From positions 37,763 through 101,762 of the forward strand of contig JBAUII010000078.1 of NCBI GenBank assembly GCA_049682815.1: a stretch of DNA of 64,000 nt. The letters run 5' to 3'. This stretch comes from Thermodesulfobacteriota bacterium (GTDB lineage Bacteria > Desulfobacterota_D > UBA1144 > Nemesobacterales > CSP1-2). Position numbers and translations under genes: made by a program. Positions 1-17,545 of this stretch are shown one piece after another (positions within the stretch are counted from its first letter, which is position 1; every line of letters starts with the position of its first letter). The notes under the pieces are model-generated. The model made no database searches, was not told the DNA's origin, and saw only the letters and a list, made by a program, of their open reading frames with translations.

Positions 1-1656
1 AGATATACCTATTACCGGTATACCCCAGAAGACTGCAAAGTAATCGAACTTCTCCCAATAAGTCCACCTGTCCAGTTTTGGACGAGCACCCAGGTATAAG
101 AACCAGCGTACGTTTCGATAGAGATCGACTAGGTCTTCCCTTCGAGGAATCATGGAATTAGGACCATACAGAAGGGTTATGTCGCCCTTTGAAAATATCT
201 TGTCCAGCATATAGCCGAGATGAAAACTAATGTAACCCAATGTCACTATTGCAAAGAATCTATGGAAGTACCTTGTTACCTCTACTCCACCGAGTATACC
301 TTCCAGAATTCTCCCCCACCACGTGTAATTATACATAAGCGGTAGTCCCGTCGCAGCAAGTCCTAAGAAACTAATAATAACGGCGACGTGGGTAATTCGA
401 GTGGGAAGGCTAAATCGGAGAACATACTTGCCACTGCTCCAGCGAGTAGGAACCTCTCCCTTCGCAACTGCTACAGCCGACCGTTGAAACCAAAGAACCA
501 TATGGAGCCCAAAAAAGCCAAAAACTGAAATAAGGAGCCAATTCATCAAGGAATAGACGTAATAAAGCAGAGGAGATCTATCCGGATCGCCGGGATCAGC
601 ATGTGGGTCATAGCTTACAAATTTCTCACTTATATCAGCGTGACACCTGCCACAAGTATTAATCAGATTGGCAGGGTAGACTGAAGAAAGTGGGTTGTCA
701 TTGGGGAGATTCAGGTGAGGTGTATGGCAGTCTGAGCATTTTGCAACCTGAACAAACCCTAGCGACGTTGACTGCCCGTGAAATGTATCCTGATAGGTAA
801 GCGCCCTCTCCCCATGGCATACACTGCACTCCTCTGATATCTGAAGCCTGAATCCAGCTGACACGGGCTCCGTGATCTGATGGGATTTGTGACATGTCGT
901 ACACACTGGTCCCACGTCAAGTCCTTCCTTCCAGAGCTGTCCATGTATACTCCTCTCATACTCATCATAAATTCCAAGGTGACACTTCTTACAGGTAAGT
1001 GGTATATTCTCTCTGTAGACACTCGAGTTTTTGTCAGTTTTTGGCCTTATGTTATGTGCACCATGGCAGTCGGAGCAAACCGCGGAGACAACTAATCCAC
1101 TGACAAGGACGCCACGGCCGTGAACACTTTCGCTGTAGCTCTCGATAAATTCCGGTGACGGGAGAGGGTGCTCCTTTGTGATCTTTTCGCTTGTATGGCA
1201 ATTTGAACATGTCGCAGGAATATTCAATGGGTTTATACGAGATTTAGGGTTATCCTTTGGAAGAATACCGTGTGAGCCATGACAACTCGTGCAAATTGGG
1301 GCATCGCTATCACCCCTCGCTATCGCTTCACCATGTATGCTTTCGGAGTATTCTTTTGCAATCTCCGGGTGACATGAAGAGCAATCAACCTTATTCGGAA
1401 TTTCCTCGTGGGGTATTTCTGTTACGTCCTGATGGCAATCTGTGCACTCGAAGCCACTATGGATTGAGGCATCTAAGAGTCCTTTATCAACCAAGGGTTC
1501 CATCGTTTCGTGACACACAAGACAGTCTTCGCTTTTAGGCTCTTCAGAACGGGAAGCAACTGTGAAGGGACAAAGAATTAAGAAGAAAAGAGTTAAAAAA
1601 AACAATGACTCATTTGATCGCGTAACTTTTATCACATGTTGCCTGTTCTTTAACAT
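1..1656 (-). CDS. Multiheme cytochrome c (11 CxxCH motifs) fused to a C-terminal diheme b-type cytochrome domain (HydC/FdnI/Ni_hydr_CYTB-like). The 3' end runs off the window. CbcL-like.
   Basis: The minus-strand frame is open from position 1 to about 1656, so it is absent from the complete-ORF track. Reverse-complement reading gives CLVCH, CTDCH, CSSCH, CTSCH, CSNCH, CSDCH, CKKCH, CTTCH, CSVCH, CSDCH and CGRCH. These are followed by four or more hydrophobic helices carrying conserved His (LHMVLWF, THVAVII, RYFHRFF..FHLGYM). The N-terminus MLKNRQ..SLFFLTLFFLILCPFTVAS is signal-like. The start is assigned to the ATG at 1656-1654. Confidence 0.7.
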   Translation of the reverse strand, partial: MLKNRQHVIKVTRSNESLFFLTLFFLILCPFTVASRSEEPKSEDCLVCHETMEPLVDKGLLDASIHSGFECTDCHQDVTEIPHEEIPNKVDCSSCHPEIAKEYSESIHGEAIARGDSDAPICTSCHGSHGILPKDNPKSRINPLNIPATCSNCHTSEKITKEHPLPSPEFIESYSESVHGRGVLVSGLVVSAVCSDCHGAHNIRPKTDKNSSVYRENIPLTCKKCHLGIYDEYERSIHGQLWKEGLDVGPVCTTCHKSHQITEPVSAGFRLQISEECSVCHGERALTYQDTFHGQSTSLGFVQVAKCSDCHTPHLNLPNDNPLSSVYPANLINTCGRCHADISEKFVSYDPHADPGDPDRSPLLYYVYSLMNWLLISVFGFFGLHMVLWFQRSAVAVAKGEVPTRWSSGKYVLRFSLPTRITHVAVIISFLGLAATGLPLMYNYTWWGRILEGILGGVEVTRYFHRFFAIVTLGYISFHLGYMLDKIFSKGDITLLYGPNSMIPRREDLVDLYRNVRWFLYLGARPKLDRWTYWEKFDYFAVFWGIPVIGIS

Positions 1657-1830
1657 ACAGCCAATAGTTTGGTGCAACCGGTATCTTTGACCATCAAACC
1701 AAGACGTGCGGGAAGCTTATGCATGTTTTTTCGCCTGAATCCTTTCATTTCGTTACGAAATCAAACGGATTTTTAAGTCACATTTTTAAGACATATTTTT
1801 AGCTTCCTATAACCCCTAACTTAAAAATTT

Positions 1831-3033
1831 CTACGTTTCAAGTTTAACCTCTGCTTCCTTCCATGGCGGCAACAGAGCAACGAGGATGTACAGAATAATA
1901 AATGGGAGCGTTAGAAAGAATAACGCCACCAAGAGCCCTTCAATTCCGAGCAATTCCATTTTGTAGGTTGTAAGTCCTCTTAAACTCTTGGAAAATAATT
2001 GCCCCCCGATAACCACATTCCATCTTATACTAAAGATTCCTATCAGGGTAAGAATTGCACTTCCAAAGTAGATAAGGCGCCTTAACTCATCAGGAAGGCG
2101 CGTCAACTTTGTCCATGCCAACAAAACCATTGGAATTATAGTTCCTAGCAGCATCTGAATCACAACCATACTGATGAACAGCTTACTGATTAAAAGCTGG
2201 TACAGTATTTTTATGGATTCTTCTGATTCGTAAATGCGGTGAATGAAGTCAAGGTTTTCCAGTGAGAAGTCCAGTATCATTGCATAGAGCAAAAAGGAAG
2301 CGAGCTTATCCATACAGGCCATATCCACGCTTCTTCGTCGAAAGAGAGTAATAACCATATAGAGTAACATGACAAGCGCAATCCCCGATACTATAGCGGA
2401 AAACAAAAAAACTACGGGCATAAGCACACTGCTCCACCAGGGATTCGCCTTTACAGAGCCAAAAATAAAACCCACATAACCATGAAGGAGGAAAGCGGAT
2501 GGAATACCGATGATGGTTATAAATTTTGCCGCCTTTCTGTCAAACTGAAGAGATCTTTCTGAGAGGTCTGAAGCCCCAAGCGTTAAGATGAGGTAAATAA
2601 ATCTTTTCAACCCCTTTTCTTTAGTAGACCAGACAACGATATCCTTTCTGTACTCAAACCACAATTCCACAAGAAGGACGACCAAGAGATACCAGCCATA
2701 TACAAAGCCAAACATGGCCATAGCGGACCTGAAATTGGGTGTGAGAAAAATTTCATAGGCCCGTTCGGGATGTCCTAGATGAGCCACAAGAGGAAGAGGC
2801 GCGACAATGAGGAAAGCAAGCGCAGTGAGAAGCGAAAGCCGGTAGGTAGGCTCTACCGCCTTAACATTAAAAACCCTTTCCAGGGAAGCAAGAATAAAAG
2901 CACCTGCTACAAGACCAGTAAGATAGGGATAAACAACAATGAGGATGCTCCAATGGAGCTCAATCTCATTGGGATAGATGAAGCCTGTAATTTCTTTAAG
3001 GGAAATGGCAAGTCGCTCAAGTAAGGGATCCAA
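1831..3033 (-). CDS. NrfD/PsrC-family polytopic membrane subunit (quinone-interacting, heme-less)
   Basis: A 400-aa ORF with 8-10 predicted TM helices and NrfD-like character (LHWSILIVVYPYLTGL..., HLGHPERAYEIF). It lies directly downstream of an NrfC-like FeS gene. Confidence 0.75.
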   Translation of the reverse strand: MDPLLERLAISLKEITGFIYPNEIELHWSILIVVYPYLTGLVAGAFILASLERVFNVKAVEPTYRLSLLTALAFLIVAPLPLVAHLGHPERAYEIFLTPNFRSAMAMFGFVYGWYLLVVLLVELWFEYRKDIVVWSTKEKGLKRFIYLILTLGASDLSERSLQFDRKAAKFITIIGIPSAFLLHGYVGFIFGSVKANPWWSSVLMPVVFLFSAIVSGIALVMLLYMVITLFRRRSVDMACMDKLASFLLYAMILDFSLENLDFIHRIYESEESIKILYQLLISKLFISMVVIQMLLGTIIPMVLLAWTKLTRLPDELRRLIYFGSAILTLIGIFSIRWNVVIGGQLFSKSLRGLTTYKMELLGIEGLLVALFFLTLPFIILYILVALLPPWKEAEVKLET

Positions 3034-3846
3034 CTAAGTAACCTCCTTGTCTAGATTCGCATAGTAGACCTTGGGTTCTGTATTAAGATAGGGCTTTAAG
3101 ACACCAATATTGTTGAATCGGACAAAACGCGCAAGGGGATTGTTGCGAGGTTTTACTTCTCCAAAAGTTCTTGCTCCAGTGGGACATACCTCTACGCACG
3201 CAGGCTGCAATCCCTTTACGATTCTGTGATAGCAAAATGTGCATTTGTCCGCCGTCTTTGTCTCGGGATTGAGATATCTCGCTCCATAAGGACAGGCCTG
3301 AATGCAGTAACGACATCCTATACAGTAATCTTTATCAACGAGGACAACGCCGTCTATTGACTGGTATGTGGCTCCAACAGGACAGACCTGCACACAGGGT
3401 GGATTATTACATTGATTACATAACTTTGGAACAAAAAACGTGCGTAGGATTTCCTTTTCACTAATGGGTTCAGGAAAACCGTGCATTCCACCTTCAGGAC
3501 TGTCCACACTCGTTTCCCCATCGACTGTAATAGTATATCTTTCCACCCAGGTTCTAAAGAAATAGGGTTCCTTAGGAACATTATTTTCAATCTTGCACGC
3601 CTCTACACATCGTCCACACCCTATGCACTTATCGATGTCAATACCCATAGCATAGTAGTGCTCCCTCGGATTGTATTTCCCATAAATACTTTCCAATGTG
3701 GAAGTGCTTTCACTAGATGCCTTTTTCAAGAAGGGGAATAGCTTAGAAAAAAGCCCGCCAAGAAAAAACCCGGAGGGGATTATGAGAAGGCTTTTAAGAA
3801 AGTTCCTCCTATTTGTTACGTTATCAAGAAGCTCTTTAGCATTCAT
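3034..3846 (-). CDS. Tat-exported 4x[4Fe-4S] ferredoxin subunit, NrfC/PsrB/HybA-like
   Basis: Twin-arginine motif RRNFLKSLLI. Four Cys clusters are present: CIGCGRCVEAC, CNQCNNPPCVQVCP, CIGCRYCIQACP and CTFC..CVEVCP. It overlaps the upstream cytochrome gene at ATGA. Confidence 0.8.
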   Translation of the reverse strand: MNAKELLDNVTNRRNFLKSLLIIPSGFFLGGLFSKLFPFLKKASSESTSTLESIYGKYNPREHYYAMGIDIDKCIGCGRCVEACKIENNVPKEPYFFRTWVERYTITVDGETSVDSPEGGMHGFPEPISEKEILRTFFVPKLCNQCNNPPCVQVCPVGATYQSIDGVVLVDKDYCIGCRYCIQACPYGARYLNPETKTADKCTFCYHRIVKGLQPACVEVCPTGARTFGEVKPRNNPLARFVRFNNIGVLKPYLNTEPKVYYANLDKEVT

Positions 3847-4592
3847 TGCTTCTCATCCTCCTTTGTGCGCGCTTCAGGATAATGGGGGTAGTGACACTCC
3901 CAGCACAAAAAACCATTGCCATGGGTTTTAATGTCGACACGCGGAATTTCAGGGGAACTTTCGGCTTCCTGTGCGTGGCACTGTCCACAGAATTCTCTAT
4001 TCCTCGGTTTATCCGGCAAAGCCATCCTTGGGTTTAATTTATGCTCTTCCTTCGCTTCGTGGCATCGAGTGCAGGCTAGGGGTGCGTGGGGTGACACAAT
4101 TTTAGTTCGAGCGATTTGCGTGTGGCATGGATCGCATTCTTCGGGCGTGACCGGAGGAACCGGATCATGGGGATTATGACAGAAAATGCAAGGCTTACCC
4201 GGATTATGCCTAACAGGGTCAATCTGTGGGAATCCTGTGGGTCTCGTGGGATTATATCCATGACACAATGGACAATAGGCGCGTTTTCTTGGTGCAGGGG
4301 GTTTGTACTCATACGGGTCCTGGGTATGGGCATAGGCAGGCCCATGGCATACTTCACAGGCGACCCCCCGATGGTATGATTTGTCTTTCAAAACGTATAT
4401 ATCATCATGGCATTCGGTGCATGCAGTTTCCCCGCCATACTTAATTTCCCTGGAGACTGCGGATTGTAATGAATCGGCACGATAATGACCGTATTGCCCA
4501 AAACTTGCGGGCATAAGAAAATGGCGGACAATTAGGAAAATGAAAATCAAGACAATAGAAAGGGCGAGAAGATATTTTATCTGTTGGGGCAT
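3843..4592 (-). CDS. Octaheme c-type cytochrome with N-terminal membrane anchor
   Basis: The 249-aa ORF contains 8 CxxCH motifs (CTECH, CEVCH, CPLCH, CIFCH, CDPCH, CTRCH, CGQCH, CWECH). An N-terminal hydrophobic helix YLLALSIVLIFIFLIV is present. Confidence 0.8.
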   Translation of the reverse strand: MPQQIKYLLALSIVLIFIFLIVRHFLMPASFGQYGHYRADSLQSAVSREIKYGGETACTECHDDIYVLKDKSYHRGVACEVCHGPAYAHTQDPYEYKPPAPRKRAYCPLCHGYNPTRPTGFPQIDPVRHNPGKPCIFCHNPHDPVPPVTPEECDPCHTQIARTKIVSPHAPLACTRCHEAKEEHKLNPRMALPDKPRNREFCGQCHAQEAESSPEIPRVDIKTHGNGFLCWECHYPHYPEARTKEDEKQ

Positions 4593-4722
4593 TCCTGACT
4601 CCTTTCACAATATCAAAAAATAATTAGGACCCCCTTTTTCTTCTGTCATAGTTTTCATGGACAAGAACGTTTTTAAGATCATCATGTTGTAAAGTCGCGC
4701 CTTTGCCTGAAATTTATGCAAT

Positions 4723-4750
4723 AAATGTGCCACAATAGATCGGCACATTT
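4723..4750. promoter_or_regulatory. Perfect 9-bp inverted repeat AAATGTGCC-N10-GGCACATTT between the dtxR 3' end and the cytochrome-operon 5' region
   Basis: Read directly. It could be the terminator stem for the feoB-dtxR unit or an operator for the cytochrome operon. Confidence 0.25.
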
Positions 4751-4826
4751 GCCATGTAACAATGCTTTAAACGAAAAAACTCGGTTAGTTTGTTCAAATT
4801 CCAGTAGCATATGGCAGCCAATGGAT

Positions 4827-5483
4827 CTACGTCGAGACCTTTCTTACGTATATATGTCTCGCAATTTCATCATCTATGGCAATATCTGTTTCTCCAGCTC
4901 TCAATACATATGCAGGTTGTTTTTGGTGGAGGACGATCTCCGCTCCAGGAATGATTCCCAGGTTGGTGAGTTGATGCAATCTTCTATGGTGCCTTGGTAC
5001 TAAAAAGATTATCTTTACCCTATCTCCGGGAATTACTTTGGCGAGTGGAACGACAAATTCTTTGGTTTCCTCTTTAAAAATTCCGCAGCATTCTCCCGGA
5101 GGGATCGGCTTTTCATGTGGACAAAACCTGGGATGTCCAAGGAAAGCGCAAATGGATTCCGTGACCTCTGAACCGAGAATATGTTCAAGCTCACAGGCCG
5201 TAGAGTCCATTTCACTGGAGCCTACCTGGAGTATGTCTTTAAGAAGCTTCTCCGCTAGACGGTGACGCCTGACTATCATTTTCGCCCTCGCGTCGCCCAT
5301 TATGGTAAGGCTTATTTTACCGTCAATATCACTTATAAGATCTGCTTCCAGAGCACATCTGATAGCTTTTTTCACGTCTTTATTCCAAGACCTTATGTAG
5401 ATTGTTTCTTCGTCTTGGATGCCTTCCTCCCTGAGCTTCCAGATAAGCTCAAGCAGTTCATCGCTTTCTTCATCGTATTTCAT
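4827..5483 (-). CDS. DtxR/IdeR-family metal (iron)-dependent transcriptional repressor with C-terminal FeoA/SH3-like domain
   Basis: The N-terminal wHTH and metal-binding regions resemble DtxR. The C-terminal part (VVPLAKVIPGDRVKII...GIIPGAEIVL) is FeoA/SH3-like. The gene sits downstream of feoB. Confidence 0.8.
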   Translation of the reverse strand: MKYDEESDELLELIWKLREEGIQDEETIYIRSWNKDVKKAIRCALEADLISDIDGKISLTIMGDARAKMIVRRHRLAEKLLKDILQVGSSEMDSTACELEHILGSEVTESICAFLGHPRFCPHEKPIPPGECCGIFKEETKEFVVPLAKVIPGDRVKIIFLVPRHHRRLHQLTNLGIIPGAEIVLHQKQPAYVLRAGETDIAIDDEIARHIYVRKVST

Positions 5484-5692
5484 GCTCTTCCCTCTTGTTT
5501 AAAGAATTTTTTTAGCCACAAAATAAGTCTTGACTCCTGGGGGAAGGAGTATCCGCATCTCGGGCAGCAGACCAACAGGCAGTCTCCTATACTTATCTGG
5601 CAGCTTATGCATCTTTCCCTTCCCTCTTCCTTATAAAATTCCTCTCCACACAAGGGGCAGGAGATTAGATTCCGAGGCTCCACAGTATCCAA
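5480..5692 (-). CDS. Small Cys-rich zinc-ribbon protein, possible Feo accessory
   Basis: The 70-aa ORF carries CPLC..CISC..CCPRC. It overlaps the feoB 3' end by 28 nt and the dtxR start by 4 nt. No RBS was evaluated, so confidence is low. Confidence 0.4.
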   Translation of the reverse strand: MDTVEPRNLISCPLCGEEFYKEEGRERCISCQISIGDCLLVCCPRCGYSFPQESRLILWLKKFFKQEGRA

Positions 5693-7629
5693 TTCGTCAT
5701 ACCTCCCACAATAATGGCTATGAAAAGAACTATCGCGACTATAATAAGGGCGGTTCTGAGCCCTTGTTCCTTTATAATGATTAGAAAGTTGGCAACACAG
5801 GGGACAAATAGCGTAATCGTAACAAGACTTACTAAAACCTGATGGCTGCTCAAGTATCCGCCCTGTTGAAGATCGAAAAGACCGGCAGCACCGTAGTCTC
5901 TTCTCAGGAATCCGATTAAAAAGGCATTCGTAGCCTCTTTGGGAAGGTCAAGGAATTTTACTACGACCGGTGAAGCCAGATTTTGTAAAAATCCAAGAAC
6001 CTTTAACCTATCCAAGACAAAAAGAATTATCGTTCCCAAGACAAACAGTGGGACCGCTTCTTTCAAATACCATTCGAGTCTCGCAACAGTCTTAATGATT
6101 ACGTTACCAATCTGTGGAATCCTTATGGGCGGAACCTCAATGATAAGATCTCGGCTTTCTCCTTTTACGAAGTAAGAAGCAAGGAAGCCAACTGTAAAAA
6201 GAACAATACAAATTTCTACCCCCCAAAAGAAAATACCCCACCGAGGTAGAGTAGAAGCCATAGCAAACACCACAGCCAGCTGGGCCGAGCACGGGATTCC
6301 TACAGCCAGAAGAAATATCACAATTAGCCTTTCCTTTTTCGTCTCGAGCATCCTAGTGGTAAGGGTTGCCATTGTGTCACATCCCAGCCCCAGTACCATC
6401 GGGAGTACAACTTTTCCATTTAGACCCATTAACTTAAACACCCTGTCAACCATAATGGCCAGCCTTGGGAGGTATCCGGAATCTTCGAGGATACTAAAAA
6501 AGATGAAAAATGTGCAGATTACGGGAAAGATTATTGCGAGCGAGTATGTCAGCGCCATAGTAATTATTCCAAAATCGCCTACGAGAAAATCAATCAATAT
6601 CTTGTAGGGAATAATCTTGGGTATGGCTATTTTAAAAAAGGGGTTTATATATCCTTCAAAGACGGTTACCTCCAAGAAATCAACGAATGTTCCTGCCCCC
6701 AGTTTTCCCACAAAGAGGTATGCGAGGTAAAGTATTAGAATTAATATAGGGATCCCAAATAGAGGATGAGTCGATGTCCGTCCTAAAAGATCCAGGGTTC
6801 GGTTGTCTGATTTAAAAGAAGGAGTTGATACCTTCTGAACGATTTCTCTTGCGAGCTCAAGCCTCTTCAGACCGATGAAATAGCTTATAGGATATTCCCT
6901 GGAGCCGAGCTTTGAGAGTGGATCAAGTCCGGCAATCGAGTCTAGCTTTTCTTTAGGAATTCTGCTAATAATGTTCTCATCCATGTTGCAGTCGCCTGAT
7001 ACAATAGAAAGACCTATAAATCTTGAGAAATGAGGGTTTGATAGAATTTTTTTCATTTCGTCTAACATTCCTTCTATAGCTTGAGAGTAAGAAACTCTCA
7101 GTTGAGGGATAGTCGAATTTACAAGTTCGTTCTTAATTCCTTCTATTCCTTTTCTTTCGATAGCCACAGTCGGAACGATAGGAACCCCAAGTTTCTGAGA
7201 GAGCTTTGCTATGTTAATGTCGACTCCTCTGTGTTGCGCTTCATCCATCATATTCAACACTATGAGTAGGGGAAGTCCCATTTCTGCAATCTGGGTTGTT
7301 ATATACAGACCCCTCTCCAGGTTTTTAGCGTCTATAACCTGAATTATAAAGTTAGCTTCACCTTCTAATAAAATATTTCTAACAACCCTTTCGTCTTCCG
7401 ACGTCGGCGTCAGGCTATTAATCCCGGGCGTATCGATAAGAGAAATCGTTTCTGACCCGATTTTCATCTCTCCCGAGGTTATCTCGACCGTTGTTCCGGG
7501 ATAATTTGAAACCGTAACGTATCTCTTGGTAAGCGAACCAAAGAGTAAGCTCTTTCCGACATTTGGGTTACCAATTAGAGCAGCCTTCTTTGGATGAGCC
7601 GGGTTCTCAGACTTGGTTTTGTTAAACAT
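5665..7629 (-). CDS. feoB: Ferrous iron transporter FeoB (G-protein domain plus membrane permease)
   Basis: The N-terminal GTPase has G1 GNPNVGKS and a DTPG motif. Long polytopic C-terminal domain; 654 aa. Confidence 0.9.
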   Translation of the reverse strand: MFNKTKSENPAHPKKAALIGNPNVGKSLLFGSLTKRYVTVSNYPGTTVEITSGEMKIGSETISLIDTPGINSLTPTSEDERVVRNILLEGEANFIIQVIDAKNLERGLYITTQIAEMGLPLLIVLNMMDEAQHRGVDINIAKLSQKLGVPIVPTVAIERKGIEGIKNELVNSTIPQLRVSYSQAIEGMLDEMKKILSNPHFSRFIGLSIVSGDCNMDENIISRIPKEKLDSIAGLDPLSKLGSREYPISYFIGLKRLELAREIVQKVSTPSFKSDNRTLDLLGRTSTHPLFGIPILILILYLAYLFVGKLGAGTFVDFLEVTVFEGYINPFFKIAIPKIIPYKILIDFLVGDFGIITMALTYSLAIIFPVICTFFIFFSILEDSGYLPRLAIMVDRVFKLMGLNGKVVLPMVLGLGCDTMATLTTRMLETKKERLIVIFLLAVGIPCSAQLAVVFAMASTLPRWGIFFWGVEICIVLFTVGFLASYFVKGESRDLIIEVPPIRIPQIGNVIIKTVARLEWYLKEAVPLFVLGTIILFVLDRLKVLGFLQNLASPVVVKFLDLPKEATNAFLIGFLRRDYGAAGLFDLQQGGYLSSHQVLVSLVTITLFVPCVANFLIIIKEQGLRTALIIVAIVLFIAIIVGGMTNWILWSLGI

Positions 7630-9915: not shown

Positions 9916-10575
9916 ATGAATCTCCTTTTAGCTCTGACTTTTATATCAATGCTTGGTTCGCTCTATGCTTCATTTATTTACGCGCCGACCGAGAGGATCA
10001 TGGGACCGATCCAAAAAATTTTTTATTTCCATATGGGAACCGTTTGGGTCGCCACAATTTCATTTGTAATCGTGTTTGTTGCAAGTATACAGTATCTGAG
10101 AAAAGAAAGTCGCAACTGGGATATTCTGGCCTACTCTTCTGCTGAAATAGGGGTGGTTTTTATCACGCTTACGATAGTATCGGGTAGTATTTGGGCAAAA
10201 CCAATCTGGGGGACCTGGTGGACTTGGGATCCGCAACTCACTACTACGTTTATTCTCTGGATTCTCTACATTGTTTATATGATAGTGCGTTCATCTGCGG
10301 GTAATGATATTAGGAAGGCAAAATTTGCCGCTGTTTTCGGGATTATCGCGTTTTTAGACTTGCCGCTTGTTTACATTTCGGCGAGAGTTATGCGTGGAAT
10401 CTCCCCGGTTGTGTTTGGATCCCGTGGGGGTGGTATTGCGCCGGAGATGATGGTAGCATTGCTCGTTACACTAGTAGCTTTTACTTTTTTGTTCATCTTG
10501 ATACTTAAGCATAGAGTAGAACTAGAAATCATGAAAGATAATATCCTTAGGATTAGATTAATGGAGGCAAAGTAA
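9916..10575 (+). CDS. ccmC: Heme exporter protein CcmC (System I cytochrome c maturation)
   Basis: Six TM helices. The tryptophan-rich WWD-type motif WGTWWTWDPQLT is present. Confidence 0.85.
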   Translation: MNLLLALTFISMLGSLYASFIYAPTERIMGPIQKIFYFHMGTVWVATISFVIVFVASIQYLRKESRNWDILAYSSAEIGVVFITLTIVSGSIWAKPIWGTWWTWDPQLTTTFILWILYIVYMIVRSSAGNDIRKAKFAAVFGIIAFLDLPLVYISARVMRGISPVVFGSRGGGIAPEMMVALLVTLVAFTFLFILILKHRVELEIMKDNILRIRLMEAK

Positions 10576-10581
10576 AAGCAG

Positions 10582-10725
10582 ATGTCTTATCTTTTCTGGT
10601 CGCAAGTAATTTTTTGGATTGTACTTTTGCTATATGTTTATTATCTTATTAGAAAAAACCATAACTTGAAAATTCAGTTAGAGTCTATCGAGTCTTCTCT
10701 GAATTCGAATGAAGGAAGTCGGTAG
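10582..10725 (+). CDS. ccmD: Probable CcmD (small single-TM heme-exporter subunit)
   Basis: A 47-aa ORF (MSYLFWSQVIFWIVLLLYVYYLIRKN...) sits between ccmC and ccmE. It has a single hydrophobic helix followed by basic residues. It is below the ORF-track size cutoff. Confidence 0.45.
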   Translation: MSYLFWSQVIFWIVLLLYVYYLIRKNHNLKIQLESIESSLNSNEGSR

Positions 10726-10752
10726 CTTATTTATTGCAGTGAGGACGGTTAA

Positions 10753-11169
10753 TTGATGCTAAAAGGAAAGACAAAATTCATAGTAGCAATCACTGTGATC
10801 GCAGTTGCTATAGCATACCTTGTTTACGGTGGCGTCAATGATACGATGATCTACTATCTTACCGTTCAGGAATTGAAGGACAAGGTACCTTCAGTGTATA
10901 AGCAAAAAGTAAGGGTCTCGGGAAAGGTTGTTCCCGGATCGATAAGGAATGAGATTGATGGAAGTCTAGAGTTTACGATTGCGGACGGGGAAGAAACATT
11001 GGATGTAAAGTATAAGGGAATAGTTCCGGATATATTTAAGGACGACGTCGAAGCGGTCGTTGAGGGTCTATATACACCGGATAACGTATTTGTGGCTAGT
11101 TTGTTGTTGGCCAAATGTCCCACCAAGTACGAATCCACAGATTCTTTAAAAAGGTCTGAAAATATATAA
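10753..11169 (+). CDS. ccmE: Heme chaperone CcmE, variant type with CxxxY (LAKCPTKY) in place of the canonical HxxxY heme-binding motif
   Basis: N-terminal TM followed by an OB-fold domain (VRVSGKVVPGSI...). The C-terminal motif has Cys where His130 normally occurs. Confidence 0.8.
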   Translation: MMLKGKTKFIVAITVIAVAIAYLVYGGVNDTMIYYLTVQELKDKVPSVYKQKVRVSGKVVPGSIRNEIDGSLEFTIADGEETLDVKYKGIVPDIFKDDVEAVVEGLYTPDNVFVASLLLAKCPTKYESTDSLKRSENI

Positions 11170-11170
11170 A

Positions 11171-13171
11171 ATGGTCGAAACTGGAAGTATTTCTATATTT
11201 TTAGCTTTTATACTCTCCGTCTACGTGATATTTGCTTCGGTCGTTGGTGCGAAAACCAGAAGGAATGATTTAATCAAAAGTGCCGAGAACGGTTCACTTG
11301 CAGTCTGCTTTCTTCTAATCATAGCAGCCGTCTCGTTGATACATGCTCTCCTGAATCTAGATTTCAGCCTTAAATATGTCGCCTTAAACGCCAGCAGCGA
11401 TCTCTCTACTATTTACAGGATAACAGCATTGTGGGCGGGCCAGGCTGGATCCCTGCTTCTTTGGTGCCTAATACTCTCAGTATATACATCCCTTGTAGTA
11501 ATTCAGAACAGGAGACGAGGCAGATTCACACCATTTGTTATCGCAACACTCGCTGCTGTTTCGACCTTCTTTGTATTTCTTATAGCCTTTGTCGAGAGTC
11601 CTTTTGAAAAGCTACCTTTCGTCGCCGAGGAGGGAAGGGGGCTAAACCCGATTCTGCAGAATGGCTACATGGCGATTCATCCTCTCACCTTATACCTCGG
11701 TTATGTCGGAGTCACAGTACCCTTTGCATTTGGGATGGGTGCTCTTCTGAGCGGCAAGTTGGATGACGAGTGGATAAGACAATGCAGAAAATGGGCATTG
11801 CTTGCATGGACATTCTTAAGCCTTGGTTTGTTGTTGGGTGCAAGGTGGGCCTACTTGGAACTCGGTTGGGGTGGCTATTGGGCATGGGATCCCGTGGAGA
11901 ATGCCGCATTTATGCCATGGCTTGCCGGAACAGCGTTTGTTCACTCGGTAATGATTCAAGAAAAAAGGGGAATGCTGAAGAAGTGGAATTTATCGCTGAT
12001 AATACTCACCTTTTTCCTGGCAATATTTGGCACCTTTGTTACCAGAAGCGGGATAATTTCCTCGGTTCATTCGTTTGCCCAGTCAGACATTGGCCCCTAT
12101 TTTCTGGGTTTTATAGGTTTCATACTTATTTTCTCATTTGCAATGTTCACTCTTAGATTAGATGATCTTAAAAGCGATAATCATTTCGACTCTATTCTAT
12201 CAAGAGAGAGCGCTTTCATATTTAACAACCTTCTTTTTCTGGGTGCCGCTTTTACCGTTTTCCTGGGAACAATATTCCCGATAATATCCGAACTAATTAC
12301 GCGGAACAAGATTCTTGTTGGTCCCCCCTATTTTAATAAAGTGAATGTTCCGATCGGTTTAGTATTGATACTTCTGATGGGAATCGGTCCGTTAATTTCC
12401 TGGAGAAAGGCCTCAAAGGATAATTTAGTCAGGAATTTCACGTTTCCAGTAGCAATCGGAGTTCTGACATCTGTAATCTTATTCGTTTTCGGAATCAGAC
12501 ACATTTATGCTCTTATTTCTTTCGGCCTGTGCGCGTATGTAACTGCAACCGTGTTTGTCGAATACTACAGAGGGATAAGAGTCCGAGTTAGAAGAGGGGA
12601 AAATTATTTGCGAGCCTTCGGGAGACTCGTATCCAAAAACCGTAGGAGATACGGTGGCTACATAGTCCATCTCGGAGTTGTTTTGGTAGTGATCGGTATA
12701 ACTGGCTCATCTGTTTTTGTTAAGCAAAAAGAGGCAACACTGAAACCAGGGGAATCCATGAGCGTTGGTGATTTTACTTTGAGCTTCGGTGATCTCAACC
12801 AGTATACGACAGATGCGAAACATGTGACAGCCGCTAGCCTCTCAGTATATAATGGCGAAAGAAAGATCGGAGCAATCGTTCCTGAAAAGAATGTGTATAT
12901 TTACTCCGGAAATCGTGAGATCAATCAAGAAACTGAGGTTGCGATTCTCTCTTCATTTACACATGACCTCTATGTAATACTTTCAAGTTTTCAAGATGGT
13001 AGCGCTAGCTTCAGGGTTTTAATAAATCCAATGGTATCGTGGATCTGGGCCGGCGGCGTGGTTCTACTTTTGGGGGCAATCGTTACTATGTGGCCTACTC
13101 CCAGCAAAAAGGAACAGGAAGTACTTGTCAGATATAGTATAGGATCAAAGGACAGGACGGCAGAAGTTTAG
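11171..13171 (+). CDS. ccmF: Cytochrome c-type biogenesis protein CcmF (heme lyase component)
   Basis: 666 aa and polytopic. WWD-type motif LGWGGYWAWDPVEN. The start codon follows the ccmE stop by 1 nt. Confidence 0.85.
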   Translation: MVETGSISIFLAFILSVYVIFASVVGAKTRRNDLIKSAENGSLAVCFLLIIAAVSLIHALLNLDFSLKYVALNASSDLSTIYRITALWAGQAGSLLLWCLILSVYTSLVVIQNRRRGRFTPFVIATLAAVSTFFVFLIAFVESPFEKLPFVAEEGRGLNPILQNGYMAIHPLTLYLGYVGVTVPFAFGMGALLSGKLDDEWIRQCRKWALLAWTFLSLGLLLGARWAYLELGWGGYWAWDPVENAAFMPWLAGTAFVHSVMIQEKRGMLKKWNLSLIILTFFLAIFGTFVTRSGIISSVHSFAQSDIGPYFLGFIGFILIFSFAMFTLRLDDLKSDNHFDSILSRESAFIFNNLLFLGAAFTVFLGTIFPIISELITRNKILVGPPYFNKVNVPIGLVLILLMGIGPLISWRKASKDNLVRNFTFPVAIGVLTSVILFVFGIRHIYALISFGLCAYVTATVFVEYYRGIRVRVRRGENYLRAFGRLVSKNRRRYGGYIVHLGVVLVVIGITGSSVFVKQKEATLKPGESMSVGDFTLSFGDLNQYTTDAKHVTAASLSVYNGERKIGAIVPEKNVYIYSGNREINQETEVAILSSFTHDLYVILSSFQDGSASFRVLINPMVSWIWAGGVVLLLGAIVTMWPTPSKKEQEVLVRYSIGSKDRTAEV

Positions 13172-13236
13172 AAATTTCCTCTCTTTGCCATTTTAATCCT
13201 TTTATTGAATAGTTCCAGAAAGCTAGGAATGTCAAA

Positions 13237-13764
13237 TTGGAAATAATTATCTTATTGGCGATTGTGATTCTTACGGCAGTCTTTATAACGTTACCTTTCT
13301 TCAGAAAAAATACCGAAGTAGAAAACCCCATTGAGCAGAAATCTAATCCTATTGAAAACCCTGCTTTAATAGAGTTGAAAAAGCTTACCTCTGAAAAGGA
13401 ATTACTATACACGGCGTTGAATGATATAGAATTTGATTACGGACTCGGAAAACTATCGAGAGAAGATTATGATGAGCTTAAACGAGAATACCAAGCAAAA
13501 GCTGTGTCCGTACTGAAAGAGATAGACGAAATTAGTAAAGGTCTACATTCTACAGAGTTAGAAGATGAATTAGAAAAAGAGATAACGGCGATAAGGAAGT
13601 CAAAATCACACGATGAAAATGAAATCGAAGATGAAATTTTGAAAGCCCGAAAACAGCACAACGATAAAAATAGATATCTAACATGTATTAATTGTGGGAG
13701 GCAATACAGCGCAGGGGATCTTTTTTGTTCAAGGTGCGGTATCGGCCTAAAAGATGTCAGCTAA
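13237..13764 (+). CDS. Membrane-anchored coiled-coil protein with C-terminal zinc ribbon (CINCG...CSRCG), function unknown
   Basis: N-terminal TM helix, charged coiled-coil region, and CxxC-N12-CxxC at the C-terminus. It is co-oriented with ccmF and overlaps the next gene by 11 nt. Confidence 0.5.
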   Translation: MEIIILLAIVILTAVFITLPFFRKNTEVENPIEQKSNPIENPALIELKKLTSEKELLYTALNDIEFDYGLGKLSREDYDELKREYQAKAVSVLKEIDEISKGLHSTELEDELEKEITAIRKSKSHDENEIEDEILKARKQHNDKNRYLTCINCGRQYSAGDLFCSRCGIGLKDVS

Positions 13765-15241
13765 GGTACTTAATTTCGAAGGAATAAATAATTTGTTTGT
13801 TATCTCGACGATAGCATTTTTGCTTCTTTCGTCTACGGTCTTTTTCGGAGTAGATATCTTTGCTCAGGTGGATGCCGAGAAGGCGGATCTTGGAAAGGAT
13901 CTATTTATCCAAAATCGATGCGTTAATTGTCATACAATTGGCAGGGGTAGATTTGTAGGCCCGGACCTGGCAGGGATCAGCAGCAGATACAGTAAAGATG
14001 AAATCAAGCAATGGATAGAGAATCCTCAACAGGTGTACCAGGCCAAGGGTAAAATGCCCATAAACGAGGGCTATCCTCCGATGCCTCCGCTACAGGTTCC
14101 GCAAGCTCATATTGACGTCATTGCAGACTATCTTTTTACTAAAAAACCCGTTCAATCTACAAAAGATTATGGTGATATTAAGGGTAGTGTCACGAACAAG
14201 ACTGGTGACGAGCCACCCGTTGGAATCGAAGTTGCCCTGCGTGAAATGTTAGGAGATCGTGTTACGGATGAAAAAACACTTATGACAGACAAAAATGGAG
14301 CTTTTGAATTTAGAGATTTACCCTGGAACCGTAGCTATACGATTACCCTAAATTATAGGGGCACCGAATATGTAACGGATAAGTTGGTTTTTTACCCGGA
14401 TGAGGATACGAAGACTATTGAGCTACCCGTATATGAACCAACCGAAAGTGACAGTGAGATAATAATAAAACAAGCTCATATGATCTTACAGGTCTCTACG
14501 GACTCGATTTCGGTCGCAGAATTATTGATGTTTGAAAACAGAGATAAAAAGATATACGTCGGTTCTGACGTGGTTGATGGGAAAAGGGAGACCTTAAAGT
14601 TTCGTCTACCCAGTGATGCCAGCAATATTCAGTTCATTCATGGCATTACAAGTGAAAACGTTGTTCAAACCGAATCTGGATTTTCGGATACGTCTCCGGT
14701 CTGGCCGGGTGCTAGAAGGGTGGTTTACACCTATACAATTCCATTTAAATCCGGGAACAATGTGATCGAAGACAGGGTGAATTATCCCACTGATAGTTTC
14801 CTGCTTCTTATTTCCGATTCGGCTGAGAAAGTGACTGTGGAGGGCCTTAGTGGAGGGGATGTCGTAGATATTCAAAATGAAAAGTTTGTTCAGTGGACTG
14901 GCAGCAATCTAAAACCTGGCTCTTCAATAGTGGTAACTATAAATAAATCGTTTGATCGTGAATCGATCGCTAAGTGGGCTGCATTTTGCGTGGTTTTACT
15001 TGTTGTTGGGGGTGGAATCCTATACGCATTTGTTTTCAAAGGAAAGGGGTTTGATAGAAATGAAAGCAAGAAAACTTTGAGTGATATTGAAAAGGAAAGG
15101 GCTATGTTGATACAGGACATTGCGGAGCTCGACGATAGATTTGAGAGTGGAGGGTTGGATGAGGAAATATATAGAAGGGCGCGTGCGGAGAAAAAAGGGA
15201 GATTAATTAAACTGGTTCAGCGAATAGCTGAACTAAGTTAA
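13754..15241 (+). CDS. Membrane-anchored monoheme cytochrome c domain protein with a beta-sandwich (carboxypeptidase-regulatory-like) domain, a second TM helix and a C-terminal coiled coil
   Basis: N-terminal signal/anchor, then a class-I cytochrome c fold (CVNCH ... KMP), then GSVTNKTGDEPP...NGAFEF. A second TM (WAAFCVVLLVVGGGILYAFVF) and a charged coiled-coil tail follow. Confidence 0.6.
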   Translation: MSAKVLNFEGINNLFVISTIAFLLLSSTVFFGVDIFAQVDAEKADLGKDLFIQNRCVNCHTIGRGRFVGPDLAGISSRYSKDEIKQWIENPQQVYQAKGKMPINEGYPPMPPLQVPQAHIDVIADYLFTKKPVQSTKDYGDIKGSVTNKTGDEPPVGIEVALREMLGDRVTDEKTLMTDKNGAFEFRDLPWNRSYTITLNYRGTEYVTDKLVFYPDEDTKTIELPVYEPTESDSEIIIKQAHMILQVSTDSISVAELLMFENRDKKIYVGSDVVDGKRETLKFRLPSDASNIQFIHGITSENVVQTESGFSDTSPVWPGARRVVYTYTIPFKSGNNVIEDRVNYPTDSFLLLISDSAEKVTVEGLSGGDVVDIQNEKFVQWTGSNLKPGSSIVVTINKSFDRESIAKWAAFCVVLLVVGGGILYAFVFKGKGFDRNESKKTLSDIEKERAMLIQDIAELDDRFESGGLDEEIYRRARAEKKGRLIKLVQRIAELS

Positions 15242-15284
15242 ATCTTATGGAATTCGAGACTTCCTGCGGGAGGGGCTTCGCTAG

Positions 15285-16007
15285 TTAAATACCCCCCAGA
15301 ATATGTTGGATTAAAGCGACCGCGACAATCGCAGCCGTTTCCGTCCTGAGCGTCCTGGGGCCTAGTCCAACAGGTGTAAATCCCCACTCCATGGCTAGGT
15401 TTATCTCAAATTCCGAAAAACCCCCTTCTGGACCTATAAATATTATAACAGTTGTCGGTAGTTGTGATACAGTCTTAATATAATCACTTAACTTAGTTCT
15501 AGAATTCTCATAGAATATAAGTCTCAAGCCACTACTATGACTGTAGATTTCAGTATCTTTAAACCTGATGACATCTTGAATATTAGGAATCGTCACGCTA
15601 CGACATTGTTTTGATGCTTCTATTGCAATTCTCTGCCATCTCAAAGCCTTATTCGTTTCTCTCACTTGGGATCTCTCAGTTACGACTGGTACTATATAAT
15701 TAACTCCTAGCTCCGTTGCCTTCCCAATGATAAAGTCCATCTTGCTTCCTTTTGGTATGCCCTGTAGGAGAGTAATTTTGGTGTCGGATTCGATATTAAC
15801 CTTGGTGGAGGTGAGTATCTCCACTCTTATCTCCGTCTTATTGATCTCACTTATCTTGCCGACATGTTCAAAGGAGGTTTCATCGAAGAGCACTACTTCG
15901 TGGCCTGGTTTTAATCTTAGCACCTTAACAATATGCCTGTAATCAGACCCCGTAATGATCGCCTCCTGATTGGATATACTCTTATTGCTGATGGGGAATC
16001 TTGCCAC
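15285..16007 (-). CDS. rsmE: 16S rRNA (uracil1498-N3)-methyltransferase RsmE
   Basis: N-terminal PUA-like domain. The C-terminal SPOUT domain has GPEGGFS..E and LGPRTLRTETA motifs. Confidence 0.8.
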   Translation of the reverse strand: MARFPISNKSISNQEAIITGSDYRHIVKVLRLKPGHEVVLFDETSFEHVGKISEINKTEIRVEILTSTKVNIESDTKITLLQGIPKGSKMDFIIGKATELGVNYIVPVVTERSQVRETNKALRWQRIAIEASKQCRSVTIPNIQDVIRFKDTEIYSHSSGLRLIFYENSRTKLSDYIKTVSQLPTTVIIFIGPEGGFSEFEINLAMEWGFTPVGLGPRTLRTETAAIVAVALIQHILGGI

Positions 16008-16015
16008 TTTAATTT

Positions 16016-17545
16016 TTACTTTGTTTGTCCGGCGGTGAAATAAGATGCAATTTCCTTTGTAAGTCCTTGAACCGTGTATGTTCCTGAAATAATCTCAGGT
16101 TCGATTCCAAAACTTCTTATCGTCTCGGCTGTTATTGGTCCAATACATGCAATCGTCGATCGCGAGATGATTTTTTTATCCCTTCCAATCATCGCGAAGA
16201 AGTTTTTAACGGTCGATGAACTTGTAAATGTAATAACATCTATGTAACCGTTCCGGAGCAACTTTCTAACCTTATCGATTTTCAATTTTCCCGGCATCTT
16301 GGTTTCGTAGACGGGAAATACATCGACACGGGCGCCCATTTTTCTGAGTTTCATTGGAAGTATTTTTCTCGCTATCTTTGCCCTGGGTATAAGAACCCGA
16401 CTTCCCTTAACATTGATTTTCTCGAAAAGCTTTATTAAACCTTCAGCCCTGAACTCTTCAGGAATCAAATCCACCTTAATACCCATCTTGTTTATCTCAT
16501 TTTTTGTTTGTTCTCCAATGGCTGCGATCCTTATACCCTTGAGGTCCCTTACATCGCTTTGCTTTTGCCTGAGCCTTTGGAAAAAGAAGGTTACCCCGTT
16601 TACACTCGTAAAAATAAGCCAATTGTAGCGGTCTAAATTCTCAATCGCCTTATCGAATCTGTTCCAAGTCCTGAGAGGTGCCACGTCGATAGTGGGAAAC
16701 TTAATTACCTGTGCTCCTTCCTCTTCTAGGAGTTCGGCAAATATTCTTGCCTGGTTTTTGGCCCTAGTCACCAGAACCGTTTTACCGAAGAGGGGCTTTG
16801 ATTCAAACCAATTTATCTTATCTCTTAAATTAACCACGTCGCCGACCGCGATGATCGACGGGGAAGATATTTTCTTTTCTTTTGATAAGCTAACGATATT
16901 CCCTATAGTTCCCGTGAGCGTTGATTGATTTGGGAGAGTGCCCCAAGTTATAATGGCCACCGGGGTCTCAGGTGACTTCCCCATCTCGATTAGCTTTTTC
17001 ATATTCTGTTCCAGTTTTTCAACTCCCATGAGGAATACCAGTGTTCCTATCTTAGCCAGGGCTTCCCACGGCAGCGAAGTTTTTACCTTTTTTGGGTCTT
17101 CATGGCCTGTAACTACTGCAAACGATGACGAATAATCCCTGTGTGTAAGCGGTATCCCGGCATACGACGTCACCCCTATGGGAGATGATACACCCGGAAT
17201 TACATCAAACCGAATACCGTGCTCTGCCAGTTCAACCGCTTCCTCGCCCCCCCTTCCAAATATAAATGGGTCTCCCCCTTTGAGCCTTGCAACGATTTTC
17301 CCCCCCAGTGCTTTCTTGGTGATTAGCGTGTTGATTTCCTTTTGCGGCATCTCCTTATGGCCTCTTTTTTTCCCAACATATATAATTTCCGCTCCTTCTT
17401 TAGCAAATATAAGCAGTTCTGGGTTTACGAGGTGGTCATATACTATTACTTCCGCCCGCGCCAAGAATTTCTTTCCCTTTAGCGTAAGTAGTTCCGGATC
17501 TCCCGGACCAGCACCAATGAGATGCACTATTCCCTTTTTCATCAT
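16016..17545 (-). CDS. Bifunctional uroporphyrinogen-III C-methyltransferase / uroporphyrinogen-III synthase (CobA-HemD fusion)
   Basis: The N-terminus has the GAGPGDPELLT... SAM-methyltransferase motif. The C-terminal half is HemD-like. Confidence 0.85.
   Translation of the reverse strand: MMKKGIVHLIGAGPGDPELLTLKGKKFLARAEVIVYDHLVNPELLIFAKEGAEIIYVGKKRGHKEMPQKEINTLITKKALGGKIVARLKGGDPFIFGRGGEEAVELAEHGIRFDVIPGVSSPIGVTSYAGIPLTHRDYSSSFAVVTGHEDPKKVKTSLPWEALAKIGTLVFLMGVEKLEQNMKKLIEMGKSPETPVAIITWGTLPNQSTLTGTIGNIVSLSKEKKISSPSIIAVGDVVNLRDKINWFESKPLFGKTVLVTRAKNQARIFAELLEEEGAQVIKFPTIDVAPLRTWNRFDKAIENLDRYNWLIFTSVNGVTFFFQRLRQKQSDVRDLKGIRIAAIGEQTKNEINKMGIKVDLIPEEFRAEGLIKLFEKINVKGSRVLIPRAKIARKILPMKLRKMGARVDVFPVYETKMPGKLKIDKVRKLLRNGYIDVITFTSSSTVKNFFAMIGRDKKIISRSTIACIGPITAETIRSFGIEPEIISGTYTVQGLTKEIASYFTAGQTK

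Follow-up and report, generated by a model that had tools for sequence, protein, structure and literature searches.

The stretch of DNA analysed here, 64,000 nucleotides from a Thermodesulfobacteriota bacterium (hereafter the window), opens inside a minus-strand gene which an initial annotation had read as a rare fusion of an 11-heme c-type cytochrome with a diheme b-type cytochrome. The locus raises the question of what this protein is, how it relates to the quinol oxidase CbcL of Geobacter, and in which direction and with which partners it would carry electrons between the quinone pool and the periplasm.

The gene, assigned to the CbcL/MtrH/MtoC family from its open frame and its BLASTP homologs, covers positions 1..1656 (minus strand) with its 5' 552 codons and is cut at the window edge. 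Its frame displays no stop between the stop codon at 1717-1719 and base 1 (572 codons), with candidate starts at ATG 1656 and GTG 1635, close homologs being annotated from GTG. The uninterrupted frame through both parts and its truncation by the edge, as first annotated, were thus confirmed; the c part runs into the b part without a stop or frameshift, and homologs at 71-88% identity are likewise single polypeptides, 649-688 aa long. A pseudogene or an assembly artefact was rejected, given that the frame is intact and that a separate metagenome contig carries it with 91.5% identity at the DNA level. Around 120 codons are absent from the window, for an estimated full length of ~672 aa, and the absent C-terminus was deduced from homologs at 79-88% identity. 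A full-length homolog at 88% identity, P0001, was used as surrogate, window residue numbers being those of P0001 plus 7. At the N-terminus, hydropathy and the P0001 model point to a signal peptide or anchor (1555..1656, minus strand, aa 1-34, core LFFLTLFFLILCPFTVA), which the AlphaFold model renders as a helix at 10-24 with low pLDDT. Since c-heme attachment needs the periplasm, the c domain that follows would be exported there.

This putative periplasmic multiheme domain spans 640..1524 (minus strand, aa 45-339) and was delimited by motif count, with CxxCH motifs at aa 45, 71, 92, 122, 150, 194, 222, 252, 277, 307 and 335. The count of 11 given by the initial annotation is exact and its span, about 700-1530, is close to the actual one. 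Indeed, 22 of the 23 cysteines of the window fragment fall within CxxCH motifs, whereas 20,000 residue shuffles averaged 0.046 motifs and never exceeded 2, compared to the 11 observed, and the other two frames of the region contain none. In the whole 64 kb, the only other ORF with more than one CxxCH is an 8-heme gene at 3843-4592. Furthermore, ten histidines outside the motifs are invariant or nearly so among 70 homologs, which is consistent with bis-His hemes. The top sequence match of the c domain in the PDB (28pb_A, 'Cytochrome c', 278 aa) was considered as a CbcL and rejected, with an E-value of only 1.5e-8 to the CbcL ortholog used below.

The remainder of the frame enters the membrane. 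Helix limits were transferred from the P0001 AlphaFold model (pLDDT 87.5, offset +7), which shows six transmembrane (TM) helices, three of them complete in the window together with the start of a fourth, so that the 'four or more' hydrophobic helices first counted were slightly generous as to number while the membrane domain itself stands. TM0, the linker between the c and b domains (463..573, minus strand, aa 362-398; P0001 helix 355-391), carries His385 (nt 502-504), which corresponds to P0001 H378 and is invariant in homolog alignment A1. TM-A (334..408, minus strand, aa 417-441), placed by profile alignment to 1kqf_C, contains His423 (nt 388-390), invariant in the homolog alignments and equivalent to FdnI His18, a ligand of the cytoplasmic-side heme b. 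TM-B (190..285, minus strand, aa 458-489), placed from the P0001 model and the profile alignment, contains His465 (nt 262-264), which the profile alignment equates with FdnI His57, a ligand of the periplasmic-side heme b, as well as His479 (nt 220-222), also invariant. TM-C begins at aa 533 and is cut by the window edge; its start is marked by the family signature RWTYWEKFDYFAVFWG (22..69, minus strand, aa 530-545), identified in alignments, invariant among homologs and also present in Geobacter CbcL.

Both by fold and by profile, the best PDB match of the b domain is FdnI, with a Foldseek E-value of 2.3e-4 and a target TM-score of 0.77 for the P0001 model against 1kqf_C and a profile E-value of 1.1e-10, at a sequence identity of ~18%. 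In the profile alignment, FdnI H18, H57, H155 and H169 align with the invariant P0001 histidines 416, 458, 571 and 586. Two of these four ligand positions lie in the window, in agreement with the earlier claim of histidines typical of HydC/FdnI cytochromes, and the second pair (P0001 H571 and H586), invariant in homologs, is located beyond the edge. P0001 H591 is a further invariant histidine, in addition to those at window positions 385 and 479. The b domain, as seen in the surrogate, thus has the FdnI fold together with the FdnI ligand histidines, and would bind two hemes b. On PF01292 (cutoff 30.1 bits) the window fragment scores 21.8, full-length P0001 a borderline 30.2 and the CbcL ortholog 27.6, which suggests a divergent branch of that family. 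An unusual extra C-terminal region had also been raised as a possibility. However, the ~120 absent residues can be read in the 88%-identical homolog, where their alignment with CbcL extends to the end; because they hold the two remaining heme-b histidines and a sixth helix, like CbcL, no such extra region is to be expected.

The resemblance to FdnI raises the possibility that the protein is simply the gamma (cytochrome b) subunit of a formate dehydrogenase or hydrogenase. JGI automatic naming calls the homologs 'cytochrome b subunit of formate dehydrogenase', and TIGR01583 gives a partial match in addition to the FdnI fold. That match, however, reaches 38 bits against a cutoff of 116, no FdnG/H or hydrogenase subunits are adjacent in the window or in four related loci (L001, L002, L126 and L127), and the 11-heme domain occupies the place where FdnH would dock. 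Hence this reading is effectively refuted, and the name 'formate dehydrogenase gamma subunit' was rejected. A NiFe-hydrogenase/NADH-dehydrogenase-type cluster does occur in another locus (L123), where it is unrelated, on the opposite strand, several kb away and not adjacent to the homolog.

In order to place the protein with respect to CbcL, a Geobacteraceae MAG ortholog found by motif scan (L039) was used as reference in place of GSU0274. This ortholog was validated against GSU0274: the two CbcL sequences measure 615 and 619 aa, 29 of 35 residues equal a published CbcL fragment, and their heme motifs lie at 35/58/83/106/130/160/188/231/259 and 34/57/82/105/129/158/186/229/257 respectively. 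By BLASTP the window fragment matches the ortholog over both domains with 34% identity (E 2e-81), and P0001 matches it with 38% identity over a 628-column alignment reaching the C-terminus (E 3e-132). A c::b fusion of the CbcL type is therefore borne out, and the protein is a true but distant homolog of CbcL. It is not a CbcL ortholog, because it has 11 hemes versus 9 with another spacing and an identity below 40%; within the CbcL clade, made up of GSU0274 orthologs from Geobacter, Desulfuromonas and Syntrophus, identity ranges from 57.6 to 100% (PMC6295460). The first interpretation is hence partly supported: the CbcL-type fusion holds, the protein is a homolog and more than the 'functional analogue' first described, and the caution that the heme count may differ from that of CbcL was justified.

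The supposed rarity of the fusion was not upheld. The CbcL/MtrH/MtoC family was catalogued in 2018 in 15 phyla, with 3-23 hemes and usually six TM helices (Zhong & Shi, PMC6295460), and Table S2 of that study already includes 11-heme members, Omnitrophica OGX07562.1 (649 aa) and Opitutae PAW67162.1 (706 aa). Related proteins numbered more than 6,500 in our scans, and the b-domain motif, scanned for as the family signature RWTYWEKFDYFAVFWG, occurs in at least 120 species genomes, fused to 0-21 hemes. Judged from its multiheme N-terminus, its TM histidines and its similarity over both domains, the protein can be assigned to this family.

Further indications of function come from the neighbourhood. 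Upstream of the fusion gene and on the same strand lie three genes: a membrane-anchored octaheme cytochrome c of 249 aa with 8 CxxCH, the first gene of the cluster (3843..4592, minus strand); an NrfC/DsrO/TtrB-like four-cluster 4Fe-4S protein of 270 aa (3034..3846, minus strand), identical to NCBI MGB7292294.1 from a Thermodesulfobacteriota MAG, whose 123.5-kb contig encodes proteins identical to those of the window; and an NrfD-family integral membrane subunit of 400 aa (1831..3033, minus strand; PF03916, 147.5 bits), 174 nt from the fusion gene, a synteny kept in L001, L002 and L126. A PDB sequence search gave no match for the NrfD-like subunit and only short matches to octaheme nitrite reductases for the octaheme protein. 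A promoter scan of 1-5600 did no better than shuffles, and neither promoter nor terminator was found in the gap 1657-1830; the cluster would form an operon.

Such an arrangement invites the reading that the fusion protein is a subunit of an Hmc-like complex with the octaheme/NrfC/NrfD trio, holding two quinone-interacting modules and serving periplasmic respiration of sulfur or nitrogen compounds, or a redox loop, instead of extracellular electron transfer. The shared strand and the short distances, a 4-nt overlap, an abutment and then 174 nt (60 nt in L126), speak for it, as do a Marinimicrobia locus (L116) in which the trio adjoins a CbcL-type cytochrome b and a NapC/NirT-type cytochrome in another gene order, and two loci (L049 and L109) which hold the trio and a CbcL-type cytochrome b within one 8-kb tile. 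However, the trio was not found beside the 72%-identical homolog (L127) or beside homologs of 51-55% identity, it occurs in only 3 of 120 scanned tiles, and no terminal reductase gene is located nearby, which makes this complex improbable.

Another set of neighbours is seen in the relatives. In the syntenic loci the fusion gene is followed by an ImcH homolog, a two-component system and a split CbcBA-like pair, the latter made of a 9-heme c-type protein with a C-terminal TM helix and a cytochrome b of 265 aa sharing 37% identity with the b domain of the fusion. An ImcH-type gene adjoins in 7 of the 7 contexts examined, which comprise the fusion subfamily and its stand-alone-b relative. ImcH homologs have been reported only from Fe(III) reducers (PMC6295460), and this adjacency favours outward electron flow.

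Taken with the domain structure, these data make it probable that the protein is an inner-membrane bc-type cytochrome of the CbcL/MtrH/MtoC family linking the menaquinone pool with periplasmic cytochromes, menaquinol oxidation being its most likely activity. The 11-heme c domain, probably all bis-His, would be exported by Sec to the periplasm and tethered by TM0 to an FdnI-type four-helix diheme cytochrome b, followed by a C-terminal sixth helix. Menaquinol would most likely be oxidised near the cytoplasmic-side heme b, from where electrons would pass over both b hemes to the other side of the membrane and then out through the chain of c hemes, a route also proposed for Geobacter CbcL. From these features we infer the cofactors that the protein binds, its quinone site, the way electrons flow and its partners. 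No outer-membrane conduit or periplasmic partner was seen in the 64 kb.

The same family protein could also run inward, as a quinone reductase fed by periplasmic cytochromes in the manner proposed for MtoC, with Fe(II), a cathode, a syntrophic partner or a periplasmic dehydrogenase supplying electrons to the menaquinone pool. Indeed, Fdn-N transfers electrons from the periplasm to quinone, and FdnI, the structural template of the b domain, itself takes part in that inward transfer. MtoC has been proposed to reduce quinone, Fe(II) oxidisers also carry CbcL/MtrH/MtoC homologs, and the two directions cannot be told apart by any feature of the sequence (PMC6295460). Inward operation is nevertheless unlikely, given that the neighbouring ImcH-type family is so far tied to Fe(III) reducers and that mtoAB/mtrAB-like genes were not seen beside the subfamily in the contexts examined. 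Outward menaquinol oxidation thus remains the preferred reading. Geobacter CbcL has been described as needed to reduce acceptors below about -0.1 V and as off at higher potential (bioRxiv 10.1101/2022.08.31.506072). The low-potential quinol oxidase role suggested at first for the present protein is unsupported; since members of the family are also found among Fe(II) oxidisers, neither direction nor potential window can be read from sequence.

By itself the gene is of limited consequence, since the literature already covers the family, its breadth and members with 11 hemes. It does give an uncultured Thermodesulfobacteriota MAG a probable CbcL-type menaquinone-to-periplasm cytochrome, which makes the organism a candidate for respiration through cytochromes, either extracellular or periplasmic. 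The most interesting part is the context, in which a sensor kinase accompanies a cluster of CbcL-type, ImcH-type, CbcBA-like and NrfCD-type modules. We tentatively propose, as a rather speculative idea, that this lineage carries a ~13-kb island with counterparts of four of the six Geobacter inner-membrane quinone:cytochrome modules and a sensor, namely a Cbc4-like octaheme/NrfC/NrfD trio, the 11-heme CbcL-type fusion, an ImcH homolog, a split CbcBA-like pair and a two-component sensor, and that the CbcL-type and ImcH-type proteins may act or be regulated as a unit. If so, that unit could be, for example, a potential-graded exit gate or even a physical complex, and the island would contrast with Geobacter, whose known systems are dispersed and independent. 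The pairing of CbcL-type b domains with ImcH-type genes is tight and specific to the subfamily, and no description of it was found in the literature searched. Its recurrence outside Geobacter could matter to specialists, and the island would offer a compact natural system for how bacteria choose quinol oxidases across acceptor potentials.

Among known systems, CbcL (GSU0274, Cbc1) shares with the present protein an N-terminal periplasmic multiheme c domain followed by a membrane domain of the FdnI diheme b type, with six TM helices in CbcL and in the P0001 model, and both have the RWTYWEKFD(Y/F)FAVFWG motif and a heme-proximal segment of the c domain. They differ in that CbcL has 9 CxxCH in 619 aa compared to 11 in ~672 aa, at 34-38% identity, and in that CbcL reportedly needs no accessory subunits whereas the gene studied here is clustered with an NrfCD module and, in relatives, with an ImcH-type gene. 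The catalogued 11-heme homologs belong to other phyla and are likened here by heme count and motif spacing; OGX07562.1 has 11 hemes, six TM helices and an essentially identical spacing (+26, +21, +30, +28, +44/45, +28, +30, +25, +30, +28). MtoC/MtrH from Dechloromonas, Gallionella and Rhodoferax likewise fuse a multiheme c to a six-TM cytochrome b, but have 9-10 hemes and are encoded alongside mtoAB/mtrAB outer-membrane conduits, none of which lies beside the fusion here. With E. coli FdnI (PDB 1KQF chain C) the protein has in common the four-helix diheme b core, with all four ligand histidines aligned in P0001; FdnI consists of four helices and docks FdnH, whereas the fusion adds an N-terminal helix with the 11-heme domain and a sixth helix. 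The likeness of the surrounding modules is one of architecture only: the relatives' split c and b pair has the layout of Geobacter CbcBA (Cbc5), and the upstream trio has the three-part layout of Cbc4/CbcSTU, whose cytochrome carries 4 hemes compared to 8 in the octaheme protein found here.

On the minus strand the frame of the fusion gene is unbroken over window positions 1-1719, with a stop at 1717-1719, candidate starts at 1656 (ATG) and 1635 (GTG) and an exit from the window at base 1. Within this frame exactly 11 CxxCH motifs were counted, at residues 45-339 (nt 640-1524), and they hold 22 of the 23 cysteines of the window protein; the other two frames over the gene contain none, and 20,000 shuffles of the protein's residues gave 0.046 motifs on average and 2 at most. 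A signal-peptide-like N-terminus is followed by the heme domain and then by hydrophobic helices. Indeed, the initial annotation had described one open minus-strand frame with 11 CxxCH motifs running into helices, and this holds; hydrophobic helices are present as it stated, but its count of four or more is slightly too high for what is visible in the window. On Pfam the c7, c3 and paired-CXXCH domains were matched, while PF01292 (FdnI/HydC cytochrome b) reached 21.8 bits against a cutoff of 30.1 because the b-domain is cut by the window edge.

The nearest homologs are single polypeptides of 649-688 aa with 71-88% identity, and therefore about 120 residues are absent from the window protein; a second length class of homologs lies at about 900-950 aa. 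As full-length stand-in we used P0001, a 672-aa homolog 88% identical to the window protein, whose contig shows 91.5% DNA identity to window 8-3453. The fusion gene is truncated by the window edge alone and its C-terminus is of the usual kind: an extra C-terminal region differing from CbcL had been suspected, but the P0001 alignment reaches the C-terminal helix of a CbcL ortholog with nothing unusual.

In the AlphaFold2 model of P0001, built with 70 homologs (pLDDT 87.5, pTM 0.74), six membrane helices are found at 355-391, 410-434, 451-482, 526-550, 562-591 and 640-671. Among PDB folds it most resembles that of E. coli FdnI, from formate dehydrogenase-N (1kqf_C, E 2.3e-4, target TM-score 0.77), which a profile from 13 diverse b-domains also matches (E 1.1e-10). 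In the profile alignment all four FdnI heme ligands (H18, H57, H155, H169) correspond to invariant histidines of P0001 (416, 458, 571, 586), two of which have counterparts inside the window, His423 (nt 388-390, minus strand) and His465 (nt 262-264), while those of 571 and 586 lie past the edge. The topology agrees with FdnI as well: His423 lies at the cytoplasmic end of the helix TM-A, and the periplasmic end of TM-B carries His465. Three more membrane-domain histidines, P0001 H378, H472 and H591, are invariant in the 70 homologs, and each sits within the membrane's cytoplasmic half; the first two are His385 (nt 502-504, minus strand) and His479 (nt 220-222) of the window protein. A quinone site and third heme ligands are both possibilities for them.

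In the protein a c domain is fused to a b domain, CbcL is a homolog, and the fold and ligand histidines are those of FdnI; two b hemes would span the membrane, with a menaquinone site close to the heme on the cytoplasmic side, where FdnI has one and where one has been proposed for CbcL (bioRxiv 10.1101/2022.08.31.506072). The quinone pool would exchange electrons with a periplasmic wire of 11 hemes, which is probably bis-His throughout given that ten non-motif histidines are invariant or nearly so in the homologs and one more is kept at 66%. A formate dehydrogenase gamma subunit was rejected, since no catalytic subunits adjoin the gene in the window or in close relatives and TIGR01583 gives 38 bits against a cutoff of 116.

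In three syntenic relatives, the gene whose place corresponds to the stretch directly beyond window base 1 encodes an ImcH-type cytochrome of 502-506 aa (L001 3987-5495; L126 12126-13634; L127 3797-5317). The L001 protein begins with three helices and carries one CX3CH and six CxxCH motifs, at 130, 155, 204, 314, 432, 452 and 493, a layout matching that of ImcH GSU3259 (motifs at 132, 156, 205, 311, 428, 448 and 486; helices at 13-35, 45-67 and 100-122). Beyond it (L001 5566-11667; L126 13687-19784) follow a LuxR-type response regulator, a dCache/HAMP/HisKA_3 kinase, an M56/M48 peptidase and a split pair, a nine-heme cytochrome c with a C-terminal helix like TM0 (the c-to-b linker) and a 265-aa cytochrome b 37% identical to the fused b-domain; together the two form a CbcBA-like paralog of the fusion. 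Each of the seven contexts examined for the fusion subfamily and its stand-alone-b relative had as neighbour a multiheme gene of the ImcH type or the related NapC/NirT type, and tblastn confirmed the ImcH type in five of them. Among the matches listed in 8-kb genome tiles, such a neighbour is seen for 19 of the 33 stand-alone b genes, for 2 of the 3 forms with 10-11 hemes, for 1 of the 8 with nine and for none of the 43 with 15-21. Hence the ImcH-type pairing with CbcL-type b-domains is subfamily-specific. In Geobacter cbcL and imcH are unlinked, and no description of the tandem arrangement was found in the literature searched. Because of this ImcH-type neighbour, a quinol oxidase with outward electron flow is favoured; reverse operation is a live rival, since direction is not marked by any sequence feature of the family (PMC6295460).

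Upstream of the fusion gene, in this NCBI MAG labelled Thermodesulfobacteriota, three minus-strand genes encode a membrane-anchored octaheme cytochrome c (3843-4592), an NrfC/DsrO/TtrB-like four-cluster FeS protein (3034-3846) and an NrfD-family membrane subunit (1831-3033). The first two overlap by 4 nt, the last two abut, and a 174-nt gap separates the trio from the fusion gene; neither a promoter nor a terminator was detected there by a consensus scan. Its three-part layout is that of Geobacter Cbc4/CbcSTU, whose cytochrome has 4 hemes instead of 8, and it was assigned to no named complex because the NCBIfam scores for DsrO, TtrB and NrfD each fall under their cutoffs. That the fusion protein acts within a larger NrfCD-containing complex is possible, though weakly supported: the trio is not beside the 72% homolog (L127) and occurs in 3 of 120 tiles among the matches listed, a narrower association than the ImcH-type one. 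The same modules are seen in changed order in a Marinimicrobia MAG (L116, 123-5899), where a stand-alone CbcL-type cytochrome b precedes a 662-aa NapC/NirT-type multiheme protein and octaheme, NrfC and NrfD genes that share 50-68% identity with those of the window, which suggests that the association recurs across phyla. The one feature meriting a specialist's second look is that the fusion gene clusters with ImcH-type, CbcBA-like and NrfCD-type modules.

A DtxR-family metal repressor with a C-terminal FeoA domain (218 aa) adjoins FeoB (654 aa) at 4827-7629 on the minus strand; in L126 FeoB is present as two short fragments only. Further upstream, near the cytochrome cluster, Ccm and heme biosynthesis genes were observed (9916-17545), comprising CcmC-like (9916-10575) and CcmF (11171-13171) proteins of cytochrome c maturation system I and a CobA/HemD fusion (16016-17545), together with a monoheme cytochrome c with a CarboxypepD_reg domain (13754-15241).

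The fusion had been called rare, which does not stand: related proteins number more than 6,500 in a database search, a motif common to the window protein and to CbcL in the alignment fragments legible in a supplement, ...RW(T)YWEKFD(F)FAVFWG..., matched at least 120 species genomes, and the CbcL/MtrH/MtoC family defined by Zhong & Shi 2018 spans 15 phyla, 416-1034 aa and 3-23 hemes, with six helices in most members and conserved TM histidines (PMC6295460). Its members occur in Fe(III) reducers and in Fe(II) oxidisers (PMC6295460). Among the matches listed, the same b-domain is fused to 0, 7, 9, 10, 11, 15, 17, 19 or 21 CxxCH motifs, and hosts include Gemmatimonadota, Ignavibacteriota, Bacteroidota, Eisenbacteria, Acidobacteriota, Syntrophales, Marinimicrobia, Verrucomicrobiota, Nitrospirota and others. 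Judged by motif spacing, the 19-heme forms (e.g. Caldithrix Cabys_319) resemble the 11-heme unit of the window protein with a second copy of hemes 1-8 placed ahead of it, and such spacing suggests a modular history. Table S2 of PMC6295460 includes 11-heme members, and in one of them, Omnitrophica OGX07562.1 (649 aa), the motifs are spaced as in the window protein. The fusion protein is thus a further member of a known, widespread family whose 11-heme form is already catalogued.

In CbcL itself, residues 30-279 form a nine-heme c domain, to which a diheme b part with six helices is fused (PMC9129911; bioRxiv 10.1101/2022.08.31.506072). In place of GSU0274, a Geobacteraceae MAG protein from the motif scan was compared, of 615 aa against 619, with heme motifs at 35, 58, 83, 106, 130, 160, 188, 231 and 259 against 34, 57, 82, 105, 129, 158, 186, 229 and 257, and identical at 29 of 35 residues of the legible CbcL fragment. 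The window fragment shares 34% identity with this ortholog (E 2e-81) and P0001 38% over 628 columns to the C-terminal helix (E 3e-132), so that the window protein is truly homologous to CbcL over its c and b domains alike. It had been proposed as a functional analogue of CbcL; with 11 hemes against nine, a difference that the initial annotation had allowed for, and less than 40% identity, against 57.6-100% inside the CbcL clade (PMC6295460), the protein is not a CbcL ortholog.
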